A DNA stretch of 47,060 bases from an uncultured Christensenellaceae bacterium (GTDB lineage: Bacteria > Bacillota > Clostridia > Christensenellales > DTU072). This document shows positions 1 through 39,036 of this stretch, piece after piece. The notes below the pieces were generated by a model. The model ran no database searches, was not told the origin of the DNA, and was given only the letters and a program-made list of their open reading frames with translations. The translations under genes and the position numbers were made by a program. Each line of letters opens with the position of its first letter. The first letter of the stretch is position 1. Where the stretch lies: contig CAYXBO010000001.1 in the NCBI GenBank assembly GCA_964463195.1, forward strand, positions 1-47,060. The letters run 5' to 3'.

Positions 1-71
1 AGTGAAAAGTGAAGAGTGAAAAGTGAAGAGTGAAAAGTGAAGAGTGAAAAGTGAAGAGTGAAAAAGTAAAT
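1..71. repeat. Tandem repeat, heptamer AGTGAA[A/G] (14-bp unit AGTGAAAAGTGAAG), truncated by window start
   Basis: Read directly: AGTGAAAAGTGAAG x4 with no mismatch (nt 1-56), then a degenerate copy AGTGAAAAAGTAAAT. It runs into the window edge, so full length is unknown. Confidence 0.9.
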
Positions 72-78
72 GGTTTTC

Positions 79-111
79 GTCATTGCGAGGAGCGTAGCGA
101 CAAAGCAATCC
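79..111 (+). repeat. Interspersed ~33-bp element with self-complementary ends (GTCATTGCGAG...GCAATCC)
   Basis: GTCATTGCGAGGAGCGTAGCGACAAAGCAATCC; the ATTGC/GCAAT ends are reverse complements. A 32/33-identical copy in inverse orientation lies at 37275-37307, and two more related copies at 37331-37360 and 37412-37444. Confidence 0.8.
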
Positions 112-3723: not shown

Positions 3724-3754
3724 GCCTTGAAGTCTCAGGACAAACAAACAGTAG

Positions 3755-3788
3755 AACAACCGCCCGCAAGGGCGGTTGTTTTTTTTTC
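3755..3788 (+). terminator. Rho-independent terminator of gene 1
   Basis: Perfect 11-bp stem AACAACCGCCC / GGGCGGTTGTT with GCAA loop, followed by a T7 run (3781-3787), 32 nt after the stop codon. Confidence 0.85.
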
Positions 3789-3809
3789 GCCCCTGAGGGG
3801 GAAGGGAGA

Positions 3810-3960
3810 GCGCCGAAGGCGCAATGAAATTGCAACTGCGTTGCAGTGATGCTCCTTGCGTCGCAGTGATATCGCCACTACGTGGCGGTGAAATTCACGC
3901 TGACGCGTGAGTGAAATCAAGCCTTGCGGCTTGGTGAAATCACTCGCCTTCGGCTCGCGG
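3810..3960 (-). repeat. Mini-hairpin array in inverse orientation (about 7 units; + strand reads hairpin + (A/G)GTGAAAT(C/T))
   Basis: Reads GCGCC-gaa-GGCGC AATGAAATT, GCAAC-tgc-GTTGC AGTGATGCT, TGCG-t-CGCA GTGATATC, GCCAC-tac-GTGGC GGTGAAATT, CACGC-tgac-GCGTG AGTGAAATC, AAGCC-ttgc-GGCTT GGTGAAATC, then an imperfect CTCGCC-ttc-GGCTCG. The reverse complement of 3871-3960 aligns ungapped to 136-225. Confidence 0.8.
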
Positions 3961-3988
3961 TTGTGGATTTTATTTAAATATCCTTAAC

Positions 3989-4078
3989 CGCACGCTTGCG
4001 TGCGATTTACCTCGCGCATAGCGCGAATTTACCCAAGCCGACAGGCTTGATTTACCCACGCGCAAGCGTGATTTACCT
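3989..4078 (+). repeat. Mini-hairpin array, ATTTACC type (4 units)
   Basis: Reads CGCACG-cttg-CGTGCG ATTTACCT, CGCGC-ata-GCGCG AATTTACCC, AAGCC-gaca-GGCTT GATTTACCC, CACGC-gcaa-GCGTG ATTTACCT. The conserved word starts at 4004, 4026, 4049 and 4070. It is separated from the inverse array by the AT-rich near-palindrome GGATTTTATTTAAATATCC (3965-3983). Confidence 0.8.
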
Positions 4079-4245: not shown

Positions 4246-4275
4246 TTGACACTATTATTATATTTATAATATAAT
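4246..4275 (+). promoter_or_regulatory. SigA-type promoter of the two-gene giant lipoprotein operon
   Basis: TTGACA (4246-4251) - 18 nt - TATAAT (4270-4275), about 47 nt upstream of ATG 4322. Confidence 0.55.
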
Positions 4276-34877: not shown

Positions 34878-37139
34878 ATGAAAAAGACTATCGTCGCAAC
34901 GCTTTTGATTATCGTTATTTTAGCCGCAAGCCTGACGGGCTGTACGTTTATCAGAGCCAACGAACAGCGTCAGCTCGAACAGACTCTTATCGTCGTCGAA
35001 AAGGACGGGCTCAAGCTGTCCGTTACTCAGATGGAGCTCATCGATAATATCAACAGCTCGGTCTACAATTACGTTCAGTACGGAATGACCGTCGAACAAG
35101 CCATAAATTACGTTATCGAAGGGCGCGTCCAATCCAAAATTCTGGTTATCGAGGCAATGCAGTATCTGCCGACCGTTGAGAGAAGACGGGCGGTTCAGAG
35201 AAACGCAACCGTAACTAAACCCGAGGACGTTTTAACTTACGCCGAATATTGCGAGGCGATAATTGCAGTAAACAATCAGATTCAGGATTCCATAGACAAC
35301 TACGTCAAGGAATACGAGGATAACCTTAAGAAAACCGAGGTTACCAACGCTTCCAAAAACAACGTGGAGAAAATAGAGATTGAGTCGGGACTTAACGAAG
35401 AATATATCGTCGGAGAGTCCTTAGCCCTCGACGACCTTAAGCTTCGTATCGTCTATAAGGACGGAACCGAAGCGGTAATTCCGGTAATTTCCTCTATGGT
35501 AGACACGGAGTTCTCTTCCCAGAGCGCCGGAGATTTCGAGCTAATCCTCGCTCTGGACGTTAACGTGGAAAAGGACGGCGTCGTCGAAACCGAAAAGATT
35601 AAGACCGAAAACGGCAAGTATACCGTTAAGGCTGCGCCTACCGTCAAGACGACTACGCTCGACGACGAAAATTACAATCCGCACAGCCATTCCAATGCCT
35701 ACATCGACAGCATCCGCTATATGACCGAGGCGGAATTGAGAACGTGGGTCACCGGCAACGAGGCTAAAAAGTACGATTACAACAACGGAAAGGGTGTCGT
35801 TCCTACACCCATCGACCTCGAGGCGATGCCCACAGCAGACATGTCCGCCGCCGAAAAGGACGCCTGGAGACGCTTAAAAACCAACCTTACCACCAACTAC
35901 AGAAGTCCCGAATACTATTACCGCTCCAACTTCGAGTCGCAGGTTCTGTCCGCGCTTCAGCACGAGCTCTATCAGAACGTGGACGAGGAAATTGCGTCCG
36001 ACGGAGATTTCAACGCAAGCGTTCTGGAGCAGTTCTCCGCGCTTTCCGCCCAGGACAGCGTCAAATACGAGCGCATGACCGTAAAAGACAGAAAGTCGGC
36101 GTTTATTTCGGCGATTTCCTCAAGTCTCGAATCTCTCTACTTCTGCCCCTCGGTGGAAAACCTCAACGAATACTATTACGTGCAGCACGTTTTGTTTAAA
36201 TTCGACGACGAAACCTTCAATTTTATCAAAGCCAACAACCTCGACCCCATTAAGGATAAGAAGGAATTCGAGAAGCTCGTTTCCCGTCAGAAGGTAAGAG
36301 AGGCTAACCCGCTTTACGACGCAAGCTACGAATGCGGCGCGGAGCACTTCGACGAAGACGGTAACTATATCGCCAATCCCGAAGGTTGCAAGTTTAATGT
36401 CTCTGAATATCTCAATCTCGGAAAGAGCAATTATCAGTATATGATAGACCATCCGGACGGACAATACTACTGCCCGTCGGTCGCCTATCTCAGGAACGAA
36501 ACTCCTGTTACGGATGTTCTCGCCGAGTTCGCCGACGCCCTCGCCACGGCAAAGAGCCTTAACGATACGCAGAAATTAAAGGAAACCTTTGAATGGTTCA
36601 TTTACCGCTTCTCCGACGTCAACAGCGGCAGCTTCAACAACGACCTCGGTTACCTTATAACCCCCGATAAATCCGATTCCTCGCTTGTCGACGGCTTCTA
36701 CGCCTTCGGCAAACTGCTCGGTGCGCAGGCGGAATATAAGGCGGAGAACGAAGGTATCTACACCGTTTCGGATGAGGTTATCAATGGAAACGGACAATAC
36801 GGCGCATACGTCATGAAATACCAAAGCAAAGGCGGCAACGCATTGCAGTACGTTGTGGGGACCGACAATTCCTCTTACGCAGGTATCCACGTTTTAATGC
36901 TTCAGAAAGTGCCGTTTACCACATCCGCGGACTGGAACTACGAAAGCTTCGTAAATTCCGCCAACGACAAGACGATTTCCAAAGCCTTGGCAGACGGAAT
37001 AATCTCTACGCGCCGCTCCACTGCATACAGCAACTTCACTTCCGAAAAACTCAAGGACTACGACGAGAGAGAGGACGTAACCGTTACCAAAGAGGAAAAG
37101 AAAATCAAATCGCTCATCTCTCAGTATACCGGTTCGTAA
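34878..37139 (+). CDS. Lipoprotein, divergent PrsA/parvulin-like foldase candidate (~753 aa)
   Basis: ORF 34821-37139. Start moved to ATG 34878 (AAAGGGAG upstream), giving MKKTIVATLLIIVILAASLTGC = lipobox LTG|C. Parvulin-like landmarks: YYVQHVLFKF, SDVNSGSFNNDLGYLI, LVDGFYAFGKLL and GIHVLMLQKV, interrupted by a long Cys-containing insert. Confidence 0.5.
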   Translation: MKKTIVATLLIIVILAASLTGCTFIRANEQRQLEQTLIVVEKDGLKLSVTQMELIDNINSSVYNYVQYGMTVEQAINYVIEGRVQSKILVIEAMQYLPTVERRRAVQRNATVTKPEDVLTYAEYCEAIIAVNNQIQDSIDNYVKEYEDNLKKTEVTNASKNNVEKIEIESGLNEEYIVGESLALDDLKLRIVYKDGTEAVIPVISSMVDTEFSSQSAGDFELILALDVNVEKDGVVETEKIKTENGKYTVKAAPTVKTTTLDDENYNPHSHSNAYIDSIRYMTEAELRTWVTGNEAKKYDYNNGKGVVPTPIDLEAMPTADMSAAEKDAWRRLKTNLTTNYRSPEYYYRSNFESQVLSALQHELYQNVDEEIASDGDFNASVLEQFSALSAQDSVKYERMTVKDRKSAFISAISSSLESLYFCPSVENLNEYYYVQHVLFKFDDETFNFIKANNLDPIKDKKEFEKLVSRQKVREANPLYDASYECGAEHFDEDGNYIANPEGCKFNVSEYLNLGKSNYQYMIDHPDGQYYCPSVAYLRNETPVTDVLAEFADALATAKSLNDTQKLKETFEWFIYRFSDVNSGSFNNDLGYLITPDKSDSSLVDGFYAFGKLLGAQAEYKAENEGIYTVSDEVINGNGQYGAYVMKYQSKGGNALQYVVGTDNSSYAGIHVLMLQKVPFTTSADWNYESFVNSANDKTISKALADGIISTRRSTAYSNFTSEKLKDYDEREDVTVTKEEKKIKSLISQYTGS

Positions 37140-37160
37140 TAACGGTTTAAAAAGGATGCA

Positions 37161-37194
37161 AAAGCCCGACTGATATCACAGTCGGGCTTTTTTG
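37161..37194 (+). terminator. Rho-independent terminator of the PrsA-like gene
   Basis: 12-bp stem AAAGCCCGACTG / CAGTCGGGCTTT followed by a T6 run, 22 nt after the stop. Confidence 0.85.
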
Positions 37195-37203
37195 TTGCAG
37201 CTT

Positions 37204-37444
37204 GTCATTGCGGGACTATGGAATAAAATTAAGGCGGTGCTGCGCACCTAATTGTTAATATATTATTAAGCACTGGATTGCTTTGTCGCTACGCTCCGCG
37301 CAATGACAGTCTATGACAGCCGCTTCCATCGTCATTGCGAGACTTCAGTCGAAGCAATCCAGTGCTTTAATAAAATACCTTATTTATTTGCGGGAGGTGC
37401 TTCGAGGGGCTGGATTGCCGCGTCACTTCGTTCCTCGCAATGAC
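37204..37444. repeat. Cluster of 3-4 copies of the GTCATTGCGAG...GCAATCC element in alternating orientation
   Basis: Partial GTCATTGCGGGAC (37204-37216). GGATTGCTTTGTCGCTACGCTCCGCGCAATGAC (37275-37307). GTCATTGCGAGACTTCAGTCGAAGCAATCC (37331-37360). GGATTGCCGCGTCACTTCGTTCCTCGCAATGAC (37412-37444). Copies 2 and 3, with flanking CACT/AGTG, form a long inverted repeat. Confidence 0.8.
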
Positions 37445-37520
37445 GATTTAAATTACTTATCCTCAAGAATCGTTGCCGTGGGACGCCCTTTGCAATCGCG
37501 AAACAAAAAGTACGTATCAT

Positions 37521-37554
37521 AAACAAAAAAGGCAACGGAAATATTCCGTTGCCT
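37521..37554 (-). terminator. Rho-independent terminator of the minus-strand Wzz-like gene
   Basis: AGGCAACGG / CCGTTGCCT stem. On the minus strand it is followed by TTTTTTGTTT, 25 nt after the stop at 37579. Confidence 0.75.
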
Positions 37555-37578
37555 TTTGCCGTTATACCGATGTTTGTT

Positions 37579-39036
37579 TTAGCCGTTAAACGCTTCCCAT
37601 TCCTTGCGGTTTACGAGCGAGCGGTAGGTTAAGAGCACGGCTATTATTGCCGCTACAATAACCGCTATGACTGCCGCTATAAGCATGGTGGTCAGAGAGG
37701 TCATGAGATTCAGCTGATATACTGCCGGAACTGCCGTAGAAATGGAATCCGAGAAGGCTTCGGTTTCCAGATACTCGTCGGTGGTGAGGTTTATCGAAAT
37801 AATCAGATTGTTGAGTTTTGTGGAAATATTCTCAGCCTGTTTGGTTGCGGACGCCTTGTTTTTAGCGATAGTTTCTTCGTCGGCGACAGTATTGTCGGGG
37901 TCGAGGTTGGCTTTGAATTTCTCTATTCTGTCTTCAAGGTCCGCGAGGTCTCTCTGATAATTGGTGAGGTTGACCTGTGCGGTGGTCTTGCGGGTGACCA
38001 GCTCGTCGTATTTTGCGGAGGGAGTGGAGAGGAACATGCCGTTCGCTCCGTTTTCTCCCTGAACGTAGATTGCGCCGTTATTGTATTCCTCAATGGAGCC
38101 CGAAAGAGATTCGATAAGGGCTTTCGTAGAATCGATTTGGTTGTTGAGCCTGACCTTTTTGGCTTCGAGGCTTTTAATGATAGACGCAGGATTGTTCGTA
38201 ATACCGTTGTTTGTGACGTGATTTTCAAAAATCGCAACGTCCAAATCTCTCAGGAGCTCTACGGAATTGATGAGGTCGTTGAAGGAAAGGGAGGTTTCCG
38301 AGCTTCTGAAATTGGGTGCGCTCTGAGCCTTGTTCTCGAGGTACATGAGTATTGTGGAAATACGGCTGCTGAAGACGTCGTACATATCGACGAAATCGTA
38401 TTCTTCGAGGTTGATGCTCGGAGCAATCGTTGCGAGGATGTTGTCCTCTGAGTAGGTTTCCTTAAAGTATTCGACGTAGCTTGCGACAATCTTGTTGAGA
38501 AGGGCGGGAGCCGTTTTCTTGTCGAGCCCGCACTTTTTAAGGTCGGAAATAGTCAGTCTGTAGCGCGACGGGAAATAGGTTAAGTCGTTGAGCTGGGTGA
38601 GCTGAGTAACGTCCTTTTCGGCAATGGAATTTATAATGAGTATCTTCTGCATTATGTCGTCGGGAACGATTCCTTCTATCGTAAGATTGTCGATTATTTC
38701 GTTCTGATATTTCACGTCGATATCTATGCCGTCGTTTCTGAGCATGGCGATTGCGTTGGAAACGACGTTAGAGGACTTGATTTTGGATACGTCAAAGGTC
38801 CTTCCGAACGGGTCTTTGCCATCTTCGATGCCCTTGAAGTTGAAGTCAACGAGAGTTTCCGCAGTGGCGTTGTCTTTGTAAGTTGCAAGAATTACGCTGC
38901 CGGAGATGAGGGCGACGAGGAGAATTGCCGCGACGCAAAGAATAAGCATTCTCACGCCGGATTTTTTCAGAAGCCAGAACAGCTTTTTGAAAGTAAATTC
39001 GCCGTTCTGTTCTTTAATTTCGGGTACTTGTCCCAT
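37579..39036 (-). CDS. Bitopic membrane protein with Wzz/polysaccharide co-polymerase-like architecture (485 aa)
   Basis: Good SD (AAAGAGAGG). TM1 MLILCVAAILLVALISGSVILAT near the N-terminus and TM2 LTTMLIAAVIAVIVAAIIAVLLTY near the C-terminus. They flank ~400 aa of helix/coiled-coil-like sequence. The call rests on architecture only, with no diagnostic motif. Confidence 0.45.
   Translation of the reverse strand: MGQVPEIKEQNGEFTFKKLFWLLKKSGVRMLILCVAAILLVALISGSVILATYKDNATAETLVDFNFKGIEDGKDPFGRTFDVSKIKSSNVVSNAIAMLRNDGIDIDVKYQNEIIDNLTIEGIVPDDIMQKILIINSIAEKDVTQLTQLNDLTYFPSRYRLTISDLKKCGLDKKTAPALLNKIVASYVEYFKETYSEDNILATIAPSINLEEYDFVDMYDVFSSRISTILMYLENKAQSAPNFRSSETSLSFNDLINSVELLRDLDVAIFENHVTNNGITNNPASIIKSLEAKKVRLNNQIDSTKALIESLSGSIEEYNNGAIYVQGENGANGMFLSTPSAKYDELVTRKTTAQVNLTNYQRDLADLEDRIEKFKANLDPDNTVADEETIAKNKASATKQAENISTKLNNLIISINLTTDEYLETEAFSDSISTAVPAVYQLNLMTSLTTMLIAAVIAVIVAAIIAVLLTYRSLVNRKEWEAFNG

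Follow-up and report, generated by a model that had tools for sequence, protein, structure and literature searches.

What is the composite palindrome, built of small GC-rich hairpins each followed by a conserved A/T-rich word, that lies between two genes at positions 3810-4078 of the window, the whole 47,060-nucleotide stretch of DNA analyzed here? The original prediction recognized in it neither CRISPR nor a riboswitch nor a named REP family and left three alternatives standing: a phased operator array for a regulator of the giant genes nearby, a multi-stem-loop RNA or protein sponge, and a new structured repeat akin to REP/BIME elements. CRISPR was rightly dismissed, the sole repeated element being a 7-nt word, with palindromes in place of "spacers" and no identical repeats of 24-48 nt. 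A named family, in contrast, does exist: Rfam Gut-1 (RF01706) matches positions 3864-3945 on the + strand with 56.1 bits (E = 1.5e-8, gathering score 50), and the alignment spans consensus positions 1-77 of the 77 in the model, canonical relatives scoring 73-80 bits. The feature is a Gut-1 family locus, composed of a head-to-head double array (B and C) and a solo arm (A) that bracket gene 1, and the window contains the three adjacent hairpins, split and flanked by GUGAAAU, by which the family is recognized.

Gut-1 was described in 2010 from human gut metagenomes as three consecutive covarying hairpins separated by GUGAAAU, a 77-nt single arm filed as "Gene; sRNA" and "only from human gut" (Weinberg et al. 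2010, PMC2864571). We found no literature on it past the 2010 catalogue, and its Rfam entry ("human gut only") has since then had neither an organism nor a function attached to it. Like the published element, the window's copy exceeds the gathering threshold and has relatives in gut microbiomes. Unlike it, the array in the window is longer (seven units), is joined head-to-head to a second arm that has the word ATTTACC and is missed by the model, and is duplicated in inverted form across gene 1; moreover, its relatives can be placed in Clostridia genome assemblies from many animal guts, and their loop statistics argue against the annotated strand. Our preferred reading, to which we give a probability of roughly 45%, is that Gut-1 is a multi-copy, REP/BIME-like structured intergenic repeat of gut Clostridia, acting at the DNA level and tied to a four-helix-bundle cassette, rather than a free-standing small RNA.

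The arrays and their surroundings in the window

Hairpin-plus-word units are confined to two sites in the 47-kb window, 139-244 and 3810-4078; a scan for such units returned no cluster elsewhere in it, just isolated weak matches with 4-5-bp stems. The pattern GTGAAAT-N16-GTGAAAT, with at most one mismatch, occurs four times versus 0.01 expected, and the folding z-score of the 311-nt region is -9.7 for DNA and -9.0 for RNA. The anatomy first read from the letters, namely hairpins plus words, an AT-rich centre and four units of opposite orientation, is as described. Array B (3810-3960, + strand, in Gut-1 orientation) comprises seven hairpin units, two of them degenerate: five hairpins (3810-3822, 3831-3845, 3873-3887, 3895-3910 and 3918-3933) are accompanied by a weak one at about 3853-3865 and a degenerate one at 3941-3960, and the + strand words after the hairpins are AATGAAAT, GTGATGC, GTGATAT and three times GTGAAAT. 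The earlier count of about seven units is therefore slightly generous, because just three of the words (at 3888, 3911 and 3934) are exact GTGAAAT.

An AT-rich near-palindromic centre (3959-3989, GGTTGTGGATTTTATTTAAATATCCTTAACC; core GGATTTTATTTAAATATCC at 3965-3983) joins B to array C (3989-4078, - strand), which has four hairpins (3989-4004, 4012-4026, 4034-4049 and 4057-4070); read along the + strand, a variant word, ATTTACC, comes after every one of them (at 4005, 4027, 4050 and 4071). Array C gave no match to Rfam Gut-1, even in a permissive search; its variant word also lies upstream of the gene-1 homologues in loci L321 and L323. Array A (139-244), which closely precedes the promoter of gene 1, has the Gut-1 orientation when read on the - strand and consists of hairpins at 139-153, 163-178, 186-201 and 207-225, each followed by an ATTTCAC-type word on the + strand, and a fifth hairpin at 231-244; its Gut-1 match (151-232, - strand) reaches 46.2 bits, under the gathering score of 50. 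The recurrence of stems from one array to another, which had been noticed at the outset, is real: A (128-225) and B (3871-3968) form a 98-nt inverted repeat, 91% complementary, that flanks gene 1, and B and C have complementary stretches of 27 nt and 24 nt in common. The 98-nt inverted repeats invite the idea that the gene-1 segment is invertible; no contig with the segment in the opposite orientation was retrieved, and contigs that carry gene-1 homologues end inside arrays. Compared by blastn with all the fetched loci, the window matched the gene-1 homologues only.

At the left edge, positions 1-64 (+ strand) hold tandem heptamer words, AGTGAAA/AGTGAAG, without hairpins (14-nt unit x 4.6, TRF score 128), in a tract that is truncated by the window start. 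This tract is probably the hairpin-less left arm of a composite whose right arm is array A, and tandem words of a similar kind (GTGAAA/GTGAAG) border the four-helix-bundle genes of loci L019 and L088. The centre position of this left composite is occupied by a second, unlike repeat of 34 nt (CGTCATTGCGAGGAGCGTAGCGACAAAGCAATCC, 78-111, + strand), which recurs in the composite centre upstream of the gene-1 homologue in L323 and in more copies at 37203-37446 of the window. A centre kindred to the one between B and C (GGTTTTGGAT..TTTAAAT) is found at 113-138, as well as in L099 and L323.

As the original prediction held, A and C both lie upstream of promoters, and these are full consensus, sigma-70-type sites on the + strand (12/12 each): that of gene 1 (TTGACA-17-TATAAT, 283-311), downstream of A and kept in the homologous loci L321-L323, including the array-less L322, and that of the giant-gene operon, gene 2 (TTGACA-18-TATAAT, 4246-4275), 170 bp beyond array C. 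Directly before B, gene 1 ends in an intrinsic terminator (3753-3790, + strand) with a 13-bp stem, a GCAA loop and a T-run. A scan found no promoter between 3790 and 4100, the centre having no promoter-like site on either strand, and a promoter in the centre and word pairs serving as -35 and -10 boxes were both rejected; TGAAAT, moreover, does not have the A that a -10 hexamer requires at position 2. The proteins of the neighboring genes are surface proteins, SpoIIE, Pth and Mfd. No PF05635 gene was detected in the window by tblastn, no transposase or RAYT was found there, and a search of its proteins found no RAYT (Y1 transposase) domain.

The element in related genomes

Conservation of the unit in related genomes, on which the original prediction had staked itself, is observed, arrays being kept in relatives at 50-68% protein identity. 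Across about 75 loci sampled from gut and rumen Clostridia genomes, double arrays joined head-to-head are the rule. Of about 23 sites with two arms, 20 are convergent when read in the GTGAAAT sense, and of 35 canonical elements 34 share the constant word count of 5 + 4. Word spacing ranges over 18-28 bp with several modes and no single helical phase, so that strict helical phasing is rejected. The contexts are many and unrelated, with a marked preference for the 3' side of stable-RNA genes: tRNA genes lie within 400 nt of 23 of 93 sites, and all 31 of those tRNA genes point toward the array. A T-run terminator precedes 26 of the 35 canonical elements and a co-oriented tRNA gene lies 35-48 nt before 17 of the 35; RNase P RNA and 23S-5S rRNA genes also precede arrays. 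The polarity of the canonical element is fixed, co-directional with the upstream stable-RNA gene, and some copies (e.g., L029) are bounded by terminators on both sides.

These contexts bear on the proposal that the arrays regulate the promoter next to them from upstream, and with it gene 1 and the giant-gene operon, either as a row of transcription-factor sites or as phased AT-rich blocks that would resemble UP elements or curved DNA. The placement of A and C before their promoters and the strong conservation of the word speak for it, as does the finding that 8 of 34 canonical elements have a promoter scoring at least 9/12 that starts no more than 12 nt past their final word, versus 1.9% of control windows. 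Most copies, however, have no following promoter, and many are closed off by terminators on either side; array B itself comes after a terminator and has no promoter in the direction it faces, and L322 has the gene-1 promoter with no array at all. Nor does the variable spacing suit phased sites, and the spacers are under selection for pairing that a double-stranded operator would not need. The element also occurs in many unrelated gene contexts. We regard this proposal as improbable, and we do not read the window's array as a regulator made for the giant genes.

Of the three alternatives first offered, the REP/BIME-like repeat comes closest, only its novelty being lost to the existing Rfam entry. 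REPs are extragenic and multi-copy, each with a small hairpin and a short conserved single-stranded word at its foot, and they form inverted clusters downstream of genes and break assemblies. Gut-1 resembles the REP/BIME elements of Enterobacteria and Pseudomonas in being extragenic and apparently multi-copy, in pairing a hairpin with a word, in forming inverted clusters, in lying downstream of genes and in breaking assemblies. It differs in its units of 18-28 nt with variable stems, where loop type, closing pair and the 7-nt word are what is conserved, and in arranging these units as direct arrays with a single inversion instead of alternating orientations; a RAYT gene was not seen among the window's proteins, and neither a GTAG box nor one conserved 20-40-nt imperfect palindrome bearing such a box is present. 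The iteron arrays of plasmid origins and multi-site transposon ends share with Gut-1 a repeat length near 22 bp and the inversion of arrays about a centre rich in A and T. Gut-1, on the other hand, is chromosomal and apparently multi-copy, varies in spacing between 18 and 28, is unconserved beyond 7 nt per unit and has no adjacent rep or transposase gene; the near-identical direct repeats at constant spacing beside rep or dnaA that mark an iteron origin are absent. A phage or plasmid origin was likewise rejected, as just 4 of 120 pattern matches from viral contigs were true arrays and pth, mfd and spoIIE are among the window's genes. The anatomy also excluded integron attC sites and the RNA repeats of type III toxin-antitoxin systems.

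Hairpin loops, strand and the level of action

The stems consist almost exclusively of Watson-Crick pairs, and compensatory changes support them. Pairing in helix H1 is 95%, with double changes at 4 pairs; over helices H1 and P0 the figures are 95-99% and 4-6, and the observed score was reached by 0 of 500 shuffles. Among 232 non-redundant hairpins, whose 1395 pairs were counted in the Rfam reading, 1353 pairs are Watson-Crick, 9 are G.U, 19 are A.C and 14 are of other kinds, and Watson-Crick pairing is kept though stem sequences differ between hairpins. On the ATTTCAC strand, GNA triloops outnumber TNC triloops 79 to 4 (p = 4e-19) and GNNA tetraloops outnumber TNNC tetraloops 58 to 0; 24 of these 58 are GNYA, outside the RNA GNRA class, and the closing pair is C-G in 210 of 243 hairpins. 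The bias toward c(GNA)g and c(GNNA)g loops on the ATTTCAC strand holds in both arms and is opposite to the strand annotated in Rfam, where the same loops read UUC, UGC and UUGC. The asymmetry of loops and wobble pairs points, in each arm, to the strand opposite the annotation.

Such loops match the DNA mini-hairpin motifs GCGNAGC and GCGNNAGC (PMC13037366; PMC3201870), with the same rule for loop and closing pair and the same restriction to one specific strand. Where these motifs are known, in origins or promoters of phages or plasmids, they occur as single hairpins, whereas Gut-1 is a chromosomal array of 4-11 hairpins that have a conserved 3' word and no known priming or promoter activity. 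In the DNA-level reading that we prefer, Gut-1 would act on single-stranded or supercoil-extruded DNA, each unit being a perfect short palindrome whose ATTTCAC strand may fold as a mini-hairpin; a loop of unusual stability, c(GNA)g or c(GNNA)g, would cap it, and the 7-nt word after it would be exposed. The arms are mirror images, and each would therefore show good hairpins on its own strand. The element stands between two transcription units, after the terminator of the first, which in very many cases is a tRNA, RNase P RNA or rRNA gene. We base this tentative preference for DNA over RNA on loop identity and the scarcity of wobble pairs; GNA and GNRA loops are good in RNA too, and a very stable RNA could likewise show few wobble pairs.

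That Gut-1 is a structured RNA as in Rfam, either a small RNA or the trailer of a stable-RNA operon, is a possibility that we place somewhat on the unlikely side. Its hairpins and single-stranded GUGAAAU/AUUUCAC words would then serve as a platform or sponge for an RNA-binding protein, possibly a four-helix-bundle pentamer wrapping several words as TRAP wraps triplets, or alternatively as a processing signal. The curated Rfam family has 18 covarying positions, matched by our own counts for H1 and P0, and the fixed length and architecture agree with an RNA; so does an 11-bp long-range helix with strong covariation that closes the canonical left arm and looks like part of a discrete folded molecule, as for an RNA gene, against the DNA reading. 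Co-transcription would also fit the polarity of an element that adjoins tRNA, RNase P RNA and 5S rRNA genes in their own orientation, as well as the terminators on either side of copies such as L029. In layouts that have the four-helix-bundle gene in the middle, such as L270, the downstream arm lies between gene and terminator and is therefore transcribed, and the related intervening sequences (IVS) of 23S rRNA work at the RNA level via RNase III (PMC4990558). Against an RNA stand the lack of a promoter in or before the arrays, the left arm starting right after a strong terminator, and loops that in the Rfam orientation are not known stable RNA loops. In addition, G.U makes up about 1% of pairs and is no commoner than A.C, triloops predominate (127 of 232 hairpins), and the favored loops fall on opposite strands in the two arms, so that a single transcript cannot explain them. 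The idea that hairpin-plus-AUUU units are tandem weak terminators was rejected, since the sister words ATATCAC, ACATCAC and CATCAT have no U-run.

The c(GNA)g mini-hairpins are also known as parts of single-stranded DNA priming signals and N4 hairpin promoters (PMC13037366), and the arrays might accordingly be initiation or origin-like signals, at which mini-hairpins in the lagging-strand template would bring in primase, in the manner of RSF1010 ssiA or the origins of phage G4, or topological devices, a gyrase or supercoil sink behind genes of high transcription as proposed for BIMEs. Inverted arrays around an AT-rich centre and a position behind strongly transcribed stable-RNA genes would suit such roles. 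We nevertheless hold them very improbable: copies appear to be many per genome, no replication gene is adjacent, primase trinucleotide logic was not identified, and the conserved word, its lineage-specific variants and the link to a four-helix-bundle gene would all go unexplained.

The association with a four-helix-bundle gene

In relatives, the array often precedes a gene for a four-helix-bundle protein of the 23S-rRNA-IVS/S23p family (PF05635, 7.5e-26; TIGR02436), whose closest solved structure is 2RLD and which had no PADLOC match to a defense system. Six of nine PF05635 genes in the fetched loci start 16-71 nt past the last ATTTCAC word, and the open reading frame (ORF) lies between or next to inverted repeats in L250, L270, L261, L280, L241 and others. 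A second sample consisted of 80 metagenome loci selected by their PF05635 gene; repeated words flank the gene in 47 of 59 cases in these gene-selected loci, versus 21 of 82 controls at displaced positions. Which word is used goes with the cluster of the protein, the words being (A/G)TGAAAT, GTGATAT, GTGATG, GTGAAG, CAATTG and others, so that in other lineages the arrays on the two sides of a related gene have a word of their own. This link between word and protein is a correlation only. Against our reading as a whole count the absence of such a gene from the window, the fact that just a minority of arrays adjoin one, and the failure to find a transposase or RAYT by which the element might spread. 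We know of no role for PF05635 (Avd relatives), a large family with solved structures, outside diversity-generating retroelements.

Literature linking PF05635 to such arrays was not found, except for heptameric repeats noted in the Coxiella IVS. In IVS elements the S23p ORF is surrounded by terminal inverted repeats as well as heptameric ones, and the protein forms a pentameric toroid (PMC4990558). Gut-1 shares with the 23S rRNA IVS of Coxiella and Leptospira (PMC4990558) the PF05635 ORF, the terminal inverted repeats with preceding tandem heptameric repeats, the tie to stable-RNA genes and a putatively selfish character. It differs from them in lying outside rRNA, behind tRNA, RNase P RNA or 5S rRNA terminators, and in having hairpin-interrupted arms instead of one long RNase III stem. 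An ORF between or beside the inverted terminal repeats is seen in related loci; most copies, including the window's, have none, and the window's arrays sit between protein-coding genes, not in a 23S rRNA helix from which RNase III would excise them.

We propose that the element and the four-helix-bundle gene form one system, in which family members bracketed by inverted arrays of lineage-specific words would read those words, presumably as the pentameric ring of solved relatives. Because related loci have the PF05635 ORF and the window has none, the window's copies would be ORF-less derivatives; gene-less copies in general would be solo (MITE-like) elements with at most a local topological or insulating effect. 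A more specific version, in which Gut-1 arrays are the cognate nucleic-acid sites of orphan S23p/Avd-like proteins, combines reading by a ring, a clade-specific word and a selfish cassette, and we consider it rather unlikely in this full form. Under it, four or five heptamer words at close spacing would be read by one pentameric ring, the DNA (or RNA) mini-hairpins between the words would keep them single-stranded and adjacent, and each protein clade would have its own word. Protein and inverted arrays would constitute a widespread selfish cassette that colonizes the 3' flanks of stable-RNA genes, the 23S rRNA intervening sequences being only its best-known niche. Should the links hold between a two-armed element behind stable-RNA genes, DNA-type loops on mirror strands and words that change with the neighboring protein, two orphans, Gut-1 and PF05635, would become directly testable by simple binding and mapping experiments, and the Rfam "sRNA" may need re-filing as a DNA-level repeat.

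In practical terms, recognizing the arrays should aid annotation and assembly, because they break metagenome assemblies of gut Clostridia and flank surface-protein genes. Many Gut-1 matches sit at contig ends, and a single metagenome-assembled genome has at least eight contigs with matches; the window holds two sites in 47 kb.

Repeat arrays around gene 1

A repeat with two arms lies downstream of gene 1, past the terminator of that gene (stem 3753-3782, followed by a T-run) and ahead of the giant-gene operon, whose consensus promoter is at 4246-4275. In arm B (3810-3960, + strand), short GC hairpins alternate with words of the GTGAAAT type (AATGAAAT, GTGATGC, GTGATAT, and GTGAAAT three times), one word after each hairpin; of the seven hairpins, two are degenerate. 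Beyond an AT-rich near-palindromic centre (3959-3989), arm C (3989-4078) repeats the same kind of unit in reversed orientation and with a variant word, as four hairpins with ATTTACC after each. These features confirm the hairpin-and-word array with two opposed arms and an AT-rich centre described in the original prediction. Gene 1 has its own consensus promoter (283-311), preceded by a further array, A (139-244), and is bracketed by A and B, which form a 98-nt inverted repeat with 91% complementarity (128-225 and 3871-3968). The pattern is far beyond chance, with four matches to GTGAAAT-N16-GTGAAAT at no more than one mismatch against 0.01 expected and folding z-scores of about -9 to -10 in the array region. 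Elsewhere in the 47-kb window, a hairpin-plus-word scan found no clustered units and only isolated weak matches.

The 98-nt inverted repeats also enclose the promoter and terminator of gene 1, and of the nine differences between them, five are located in hairpin loops and none in the perfect stems. Judging from this arrangement, the 3.6-kb gene 1 segment could invert.

The window comes from the chromosome of a spore-forming member of the Clostridia and encodes SpoIIE, a signal peptidase, Pth, and Mfd, together with giant surface lipoproteins whose Big_4, MBG, and beta-helix matches, in a run of very large lipoprotein-like genes at 358-29535 (1121, 2573, 3884, and 1490 aa), are all weak. Five homologues of gene 1 are present in databases (40-68% identity), all on short contigs of 3.7-7.7 kb, and three of these loci were fetched. 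One (L321) carries arrays on both sides, the downstream contig end falling inside an array; another (L323) has an upstream composite with ATTTAC(C/T)-type words on its promoter-side arm and, as its centre, the same 34-nt CGTCATTGCG...GCAATCC repeat as window 78-111, so that the units do recur in related genomes. The third (L322) keeps the promoter, lacks the upstream array, and has a different gene neighbourhood. By these loci, the arrays are conserved in the lineage and the gene 1 promoter does not require them, which argues against the earlier proposal of an operator dedicated to a regulator of the giant genes.

The Gut-1 family and its double-array form

The covariance model of the Gut-1 RNA (RF01706; gathering score, 50) matches 3864-3945 on the + strand with 56.1 bits (E = 1.5e-8), reaches 46.2 bits at 151-232 on the - strand, and gives no match to arm C, which has the variant word. 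Gut-1 entered the catalogue of Weinberg et al. in 2010 as a likely noncoding RNA, on the basis of 43 sequences from human-gut metagenomes, and its entire published description is that it is restricted to gut environmental sequences (PMC2864571). Since we found no literature on Gut-1 after that catalogue, the window element belongs to a family that is known yet unexplained. Among the three readings offered earlier, that of a new REP/BIME-like repeat comes nearest, except that the element already bears a name.

We searched one genome per species for three phased GTGAAAT words and obtained 120 loci. True hairpin arrays are present in about 75, nearly all of them in gut or rumen MAGs labelled Clostridia, Eubacteriales, Oscillospiraceae, Acutalibacteraceae, Ruminococcaceae, or Christensenellaceae. 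A few array-bearing MAGs are labelled Akkermansia or Bacteroidaceae, and binning errors are possible there. One Akkermansia-labelled locus (L003, 2300-3310 and 5900-6850) has three Gut-1 matches of 60-67 bits and a four-helix-bundle gene with a different hairpin array on both sides (word (G)ATATAAC); either the element crosses phyla here or the sequence was wrongly binned. Of 120 pattern matches in viral contigs, only 4 are real arrays. Many matches lie at contig ends and one MAG gives at least eight contigs with matches, which is the behaviour of a multicopy repeat. In some genomes, several Gut-1 arms stand in tandem, about 240-280 nt apart (L005, 3372-3979; L086, 1101-1762); the original 2010 alignment also has matches 240 nt apart on one contig.

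The double array is the usual form: of about 23 sites with two arms, 20 have them converging in the GTGAAAT sense, like the pair in the window. A widespread canonical form of fixed design emerges from 35 distinct aligned copies (alignment A2). After a terminator, its left arm, with five words and four hairpins, reads AACGAAAT H1 GTGAAAT H2 GTGAAAT H3 GTGAAAT H4 GTGAG; a box follows, and then the right arm, which reads ATTTCATTTCAC H5 ATTTCAC H6 ATTTCAC H7 ATTTCAC and has four words and three hairpins in 34 of 35 copies. The Rfam model corresponds to the left arm, and left arms score 73-80 bits. A new long-range helix of 11 bp (A2 columns 4-14 with 102-112), which the Rfam model does not include, closes off the left arm: its 5' strand is the first 11 nt, made up of GAAAT and the 5' half of H1, and its 3' strand is formed by the centre box together with ATTTC. 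This helix is 99.2% paired, with six pairs changed on both sides and a score reached by 0 of 500 shuffles; H1 competes with it and covaries equally. The helix would produce a cloverleaf-like fold with H2-H4 as branches.

Stable-RNA genes are frequent neighbours. tRNA genes lie within 400 nt of 23 of 93 array sites, and all 31 such genes point toward the array; a co-oriented tRNA gene precedes 17 of the 35 canonical copies by 35-48 nt, and a T-run terminator stands directly before 26 of them. In L106 (1-296), 17 nt separate an RNase P RNA gene from Gut-1-type arrays downstream of it, and a 23S-5S rRNA operon is followed by arrays and a four-helix-bundle gene (L280, 1-1103), extending the association to other stable-RNA genes. 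Many copies have terminators on both sides. Of 34 copies, 8 have a promoter whose -35 hexamer starts within 12 nt of the last word (control windows, 1.9%); such a promoter is thus frequent, not obligatory.

The fetched genome loci contain nine genes of a four-helix-bundle family (PF05635 23S_rRNA_IVP, 7.5e-26; TIGR02436, 7e-30; closest structure, 2RLD), six of which begin 16-71 nt after the last ATTTCAC word and in the same direction. In a second sample, 80 metagenome loci selected by the gene and not by the repeat, repeated short words occupy the gene flanks in 47 of 59 cases versus 21 of 82 displaced controls. The word tracks the protein cluster: (A/G)TGAAAT in 13/13 closest relatives, GTGATAT in 8/10 of the next cluster, and GTGATG/CATCAT, GTGAAG, AGTGAAT, CAATTG(AC), and others in further clusters. 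Two arrangements are seen repeatedly: the gene is flanked by a word-array upstream and its reverse complement downstream (L250, L270, L261, L280, and L285), or it has both arms, joined, ahead of its promoter (L241, L254, and L277). Hairpins separate the words in some lineages, and others have bare tandem heptamers, the kind found in the first 64 bases of the window (AGTGAAA/AGTGAAG). These layouts match those of published 23S rRNA intervening sequences, which are selfish in character and have an S23p ORF encoding a pentameric toroidal protein, tandem heptameric repeats before the ORF, and terminal inverted repeats (PMC4990558). No four-helix-bundle gene was found within the 47-kb window.

DNA or RNA as the level of action

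Our preferred reading, to which we assign a probability of roughly 45%, is that the arrays would act at the DNA level as a structured intergenic repeat of a four-helix-bundle cassette system, of which the window arrays would be ORF-less copies. The main rival is an RNA-level role for Gut-1, as filed in Rfam; good arguments for it are that the long-range helix covaries and that the element keeps one polarity behind stable-RNA genes. The stems of 232 non-redundant hairpins consist almost entirely of Watson-Crick pairs (1353, against 9 G.U, 19 A.C, and 14 other mismatches in the Rfam reading), and their loops show an extreme strand bias. On the ATTTCAC strand, GNA outnumbers TNC among triloops by 79 to 4 (p = 4e-19) and GNNA outnumbers TNNC among tetraloops by 58 to 0; 24 of the 58 GNNA loops are GNYA, the RNA-typical class being GNRA, and C-G closes 210 of 243 hairpins. 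Such c(GNA)g and c(GNNA)g motifs form extraordinarily stable DNA mini-hairpins (GCGNAGC and GCGNNAGC), found in single-stranded DNA priming signals and N4 hairpin promoters (PMC13037366, PMC3201870).

The loop bias flips between the arms, so the favoured loops lie on each arm's own strand, 5' to 3' away from the centre, a mirror-image selection that cannot be explained by a single read-through transcript. The orientation annotated in Rfam has the loops UUC, UGC, and UUGC, none of which is known as a stable RNA loop, and a search for promoters within or ahead of the arrays found none. These observations favour, without proving, a DNA-level or two-strand function, and we regard an RNA-level role as less likely. 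Gut-1 and PF05635 become testable through several leads: the architecture with two arms, the new long-range helix, the preference for stable-RNA genes, loops of the DNA type, and the covariation of word and protein.

Other repeats beside the arrays

At window positions 1-64, AGTGAAAAGTGAAG is repeated perfectly in tandem (4.6 copies); this repeat runs off the window start, contains the GTGAAA/GTGAAG words of the arrays without hairpins, and resembles the repeats flanking four-helix-bundle genes in two fetched loci (L019 and L088). The window start may be an assembly break caused by this repeat. A second repeat family consists of units of about 34 nt (CGTCATTGCGAGGAGCGTAGCGACAAAGCAATCC), hairpins in which ATTGC and GCAAT pair beneath a long loop, and has one copy beside array A (78-111) and three to four copies in both orientations at 37203-37446, within the intergenic region 37139-37579; it gave no Rfam match at the thresholds used. 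The same repeat occurs in L322 and in L323, where it is the centre of the Gut-1 composite. A box at 255-270 (TTTTCCCATATAATGG), between array A and the gene 1 promoter, is kept in L321 and L323 and absent, like the array, from L322; by this distribution, it may belong to the repeat module and not to the gene.
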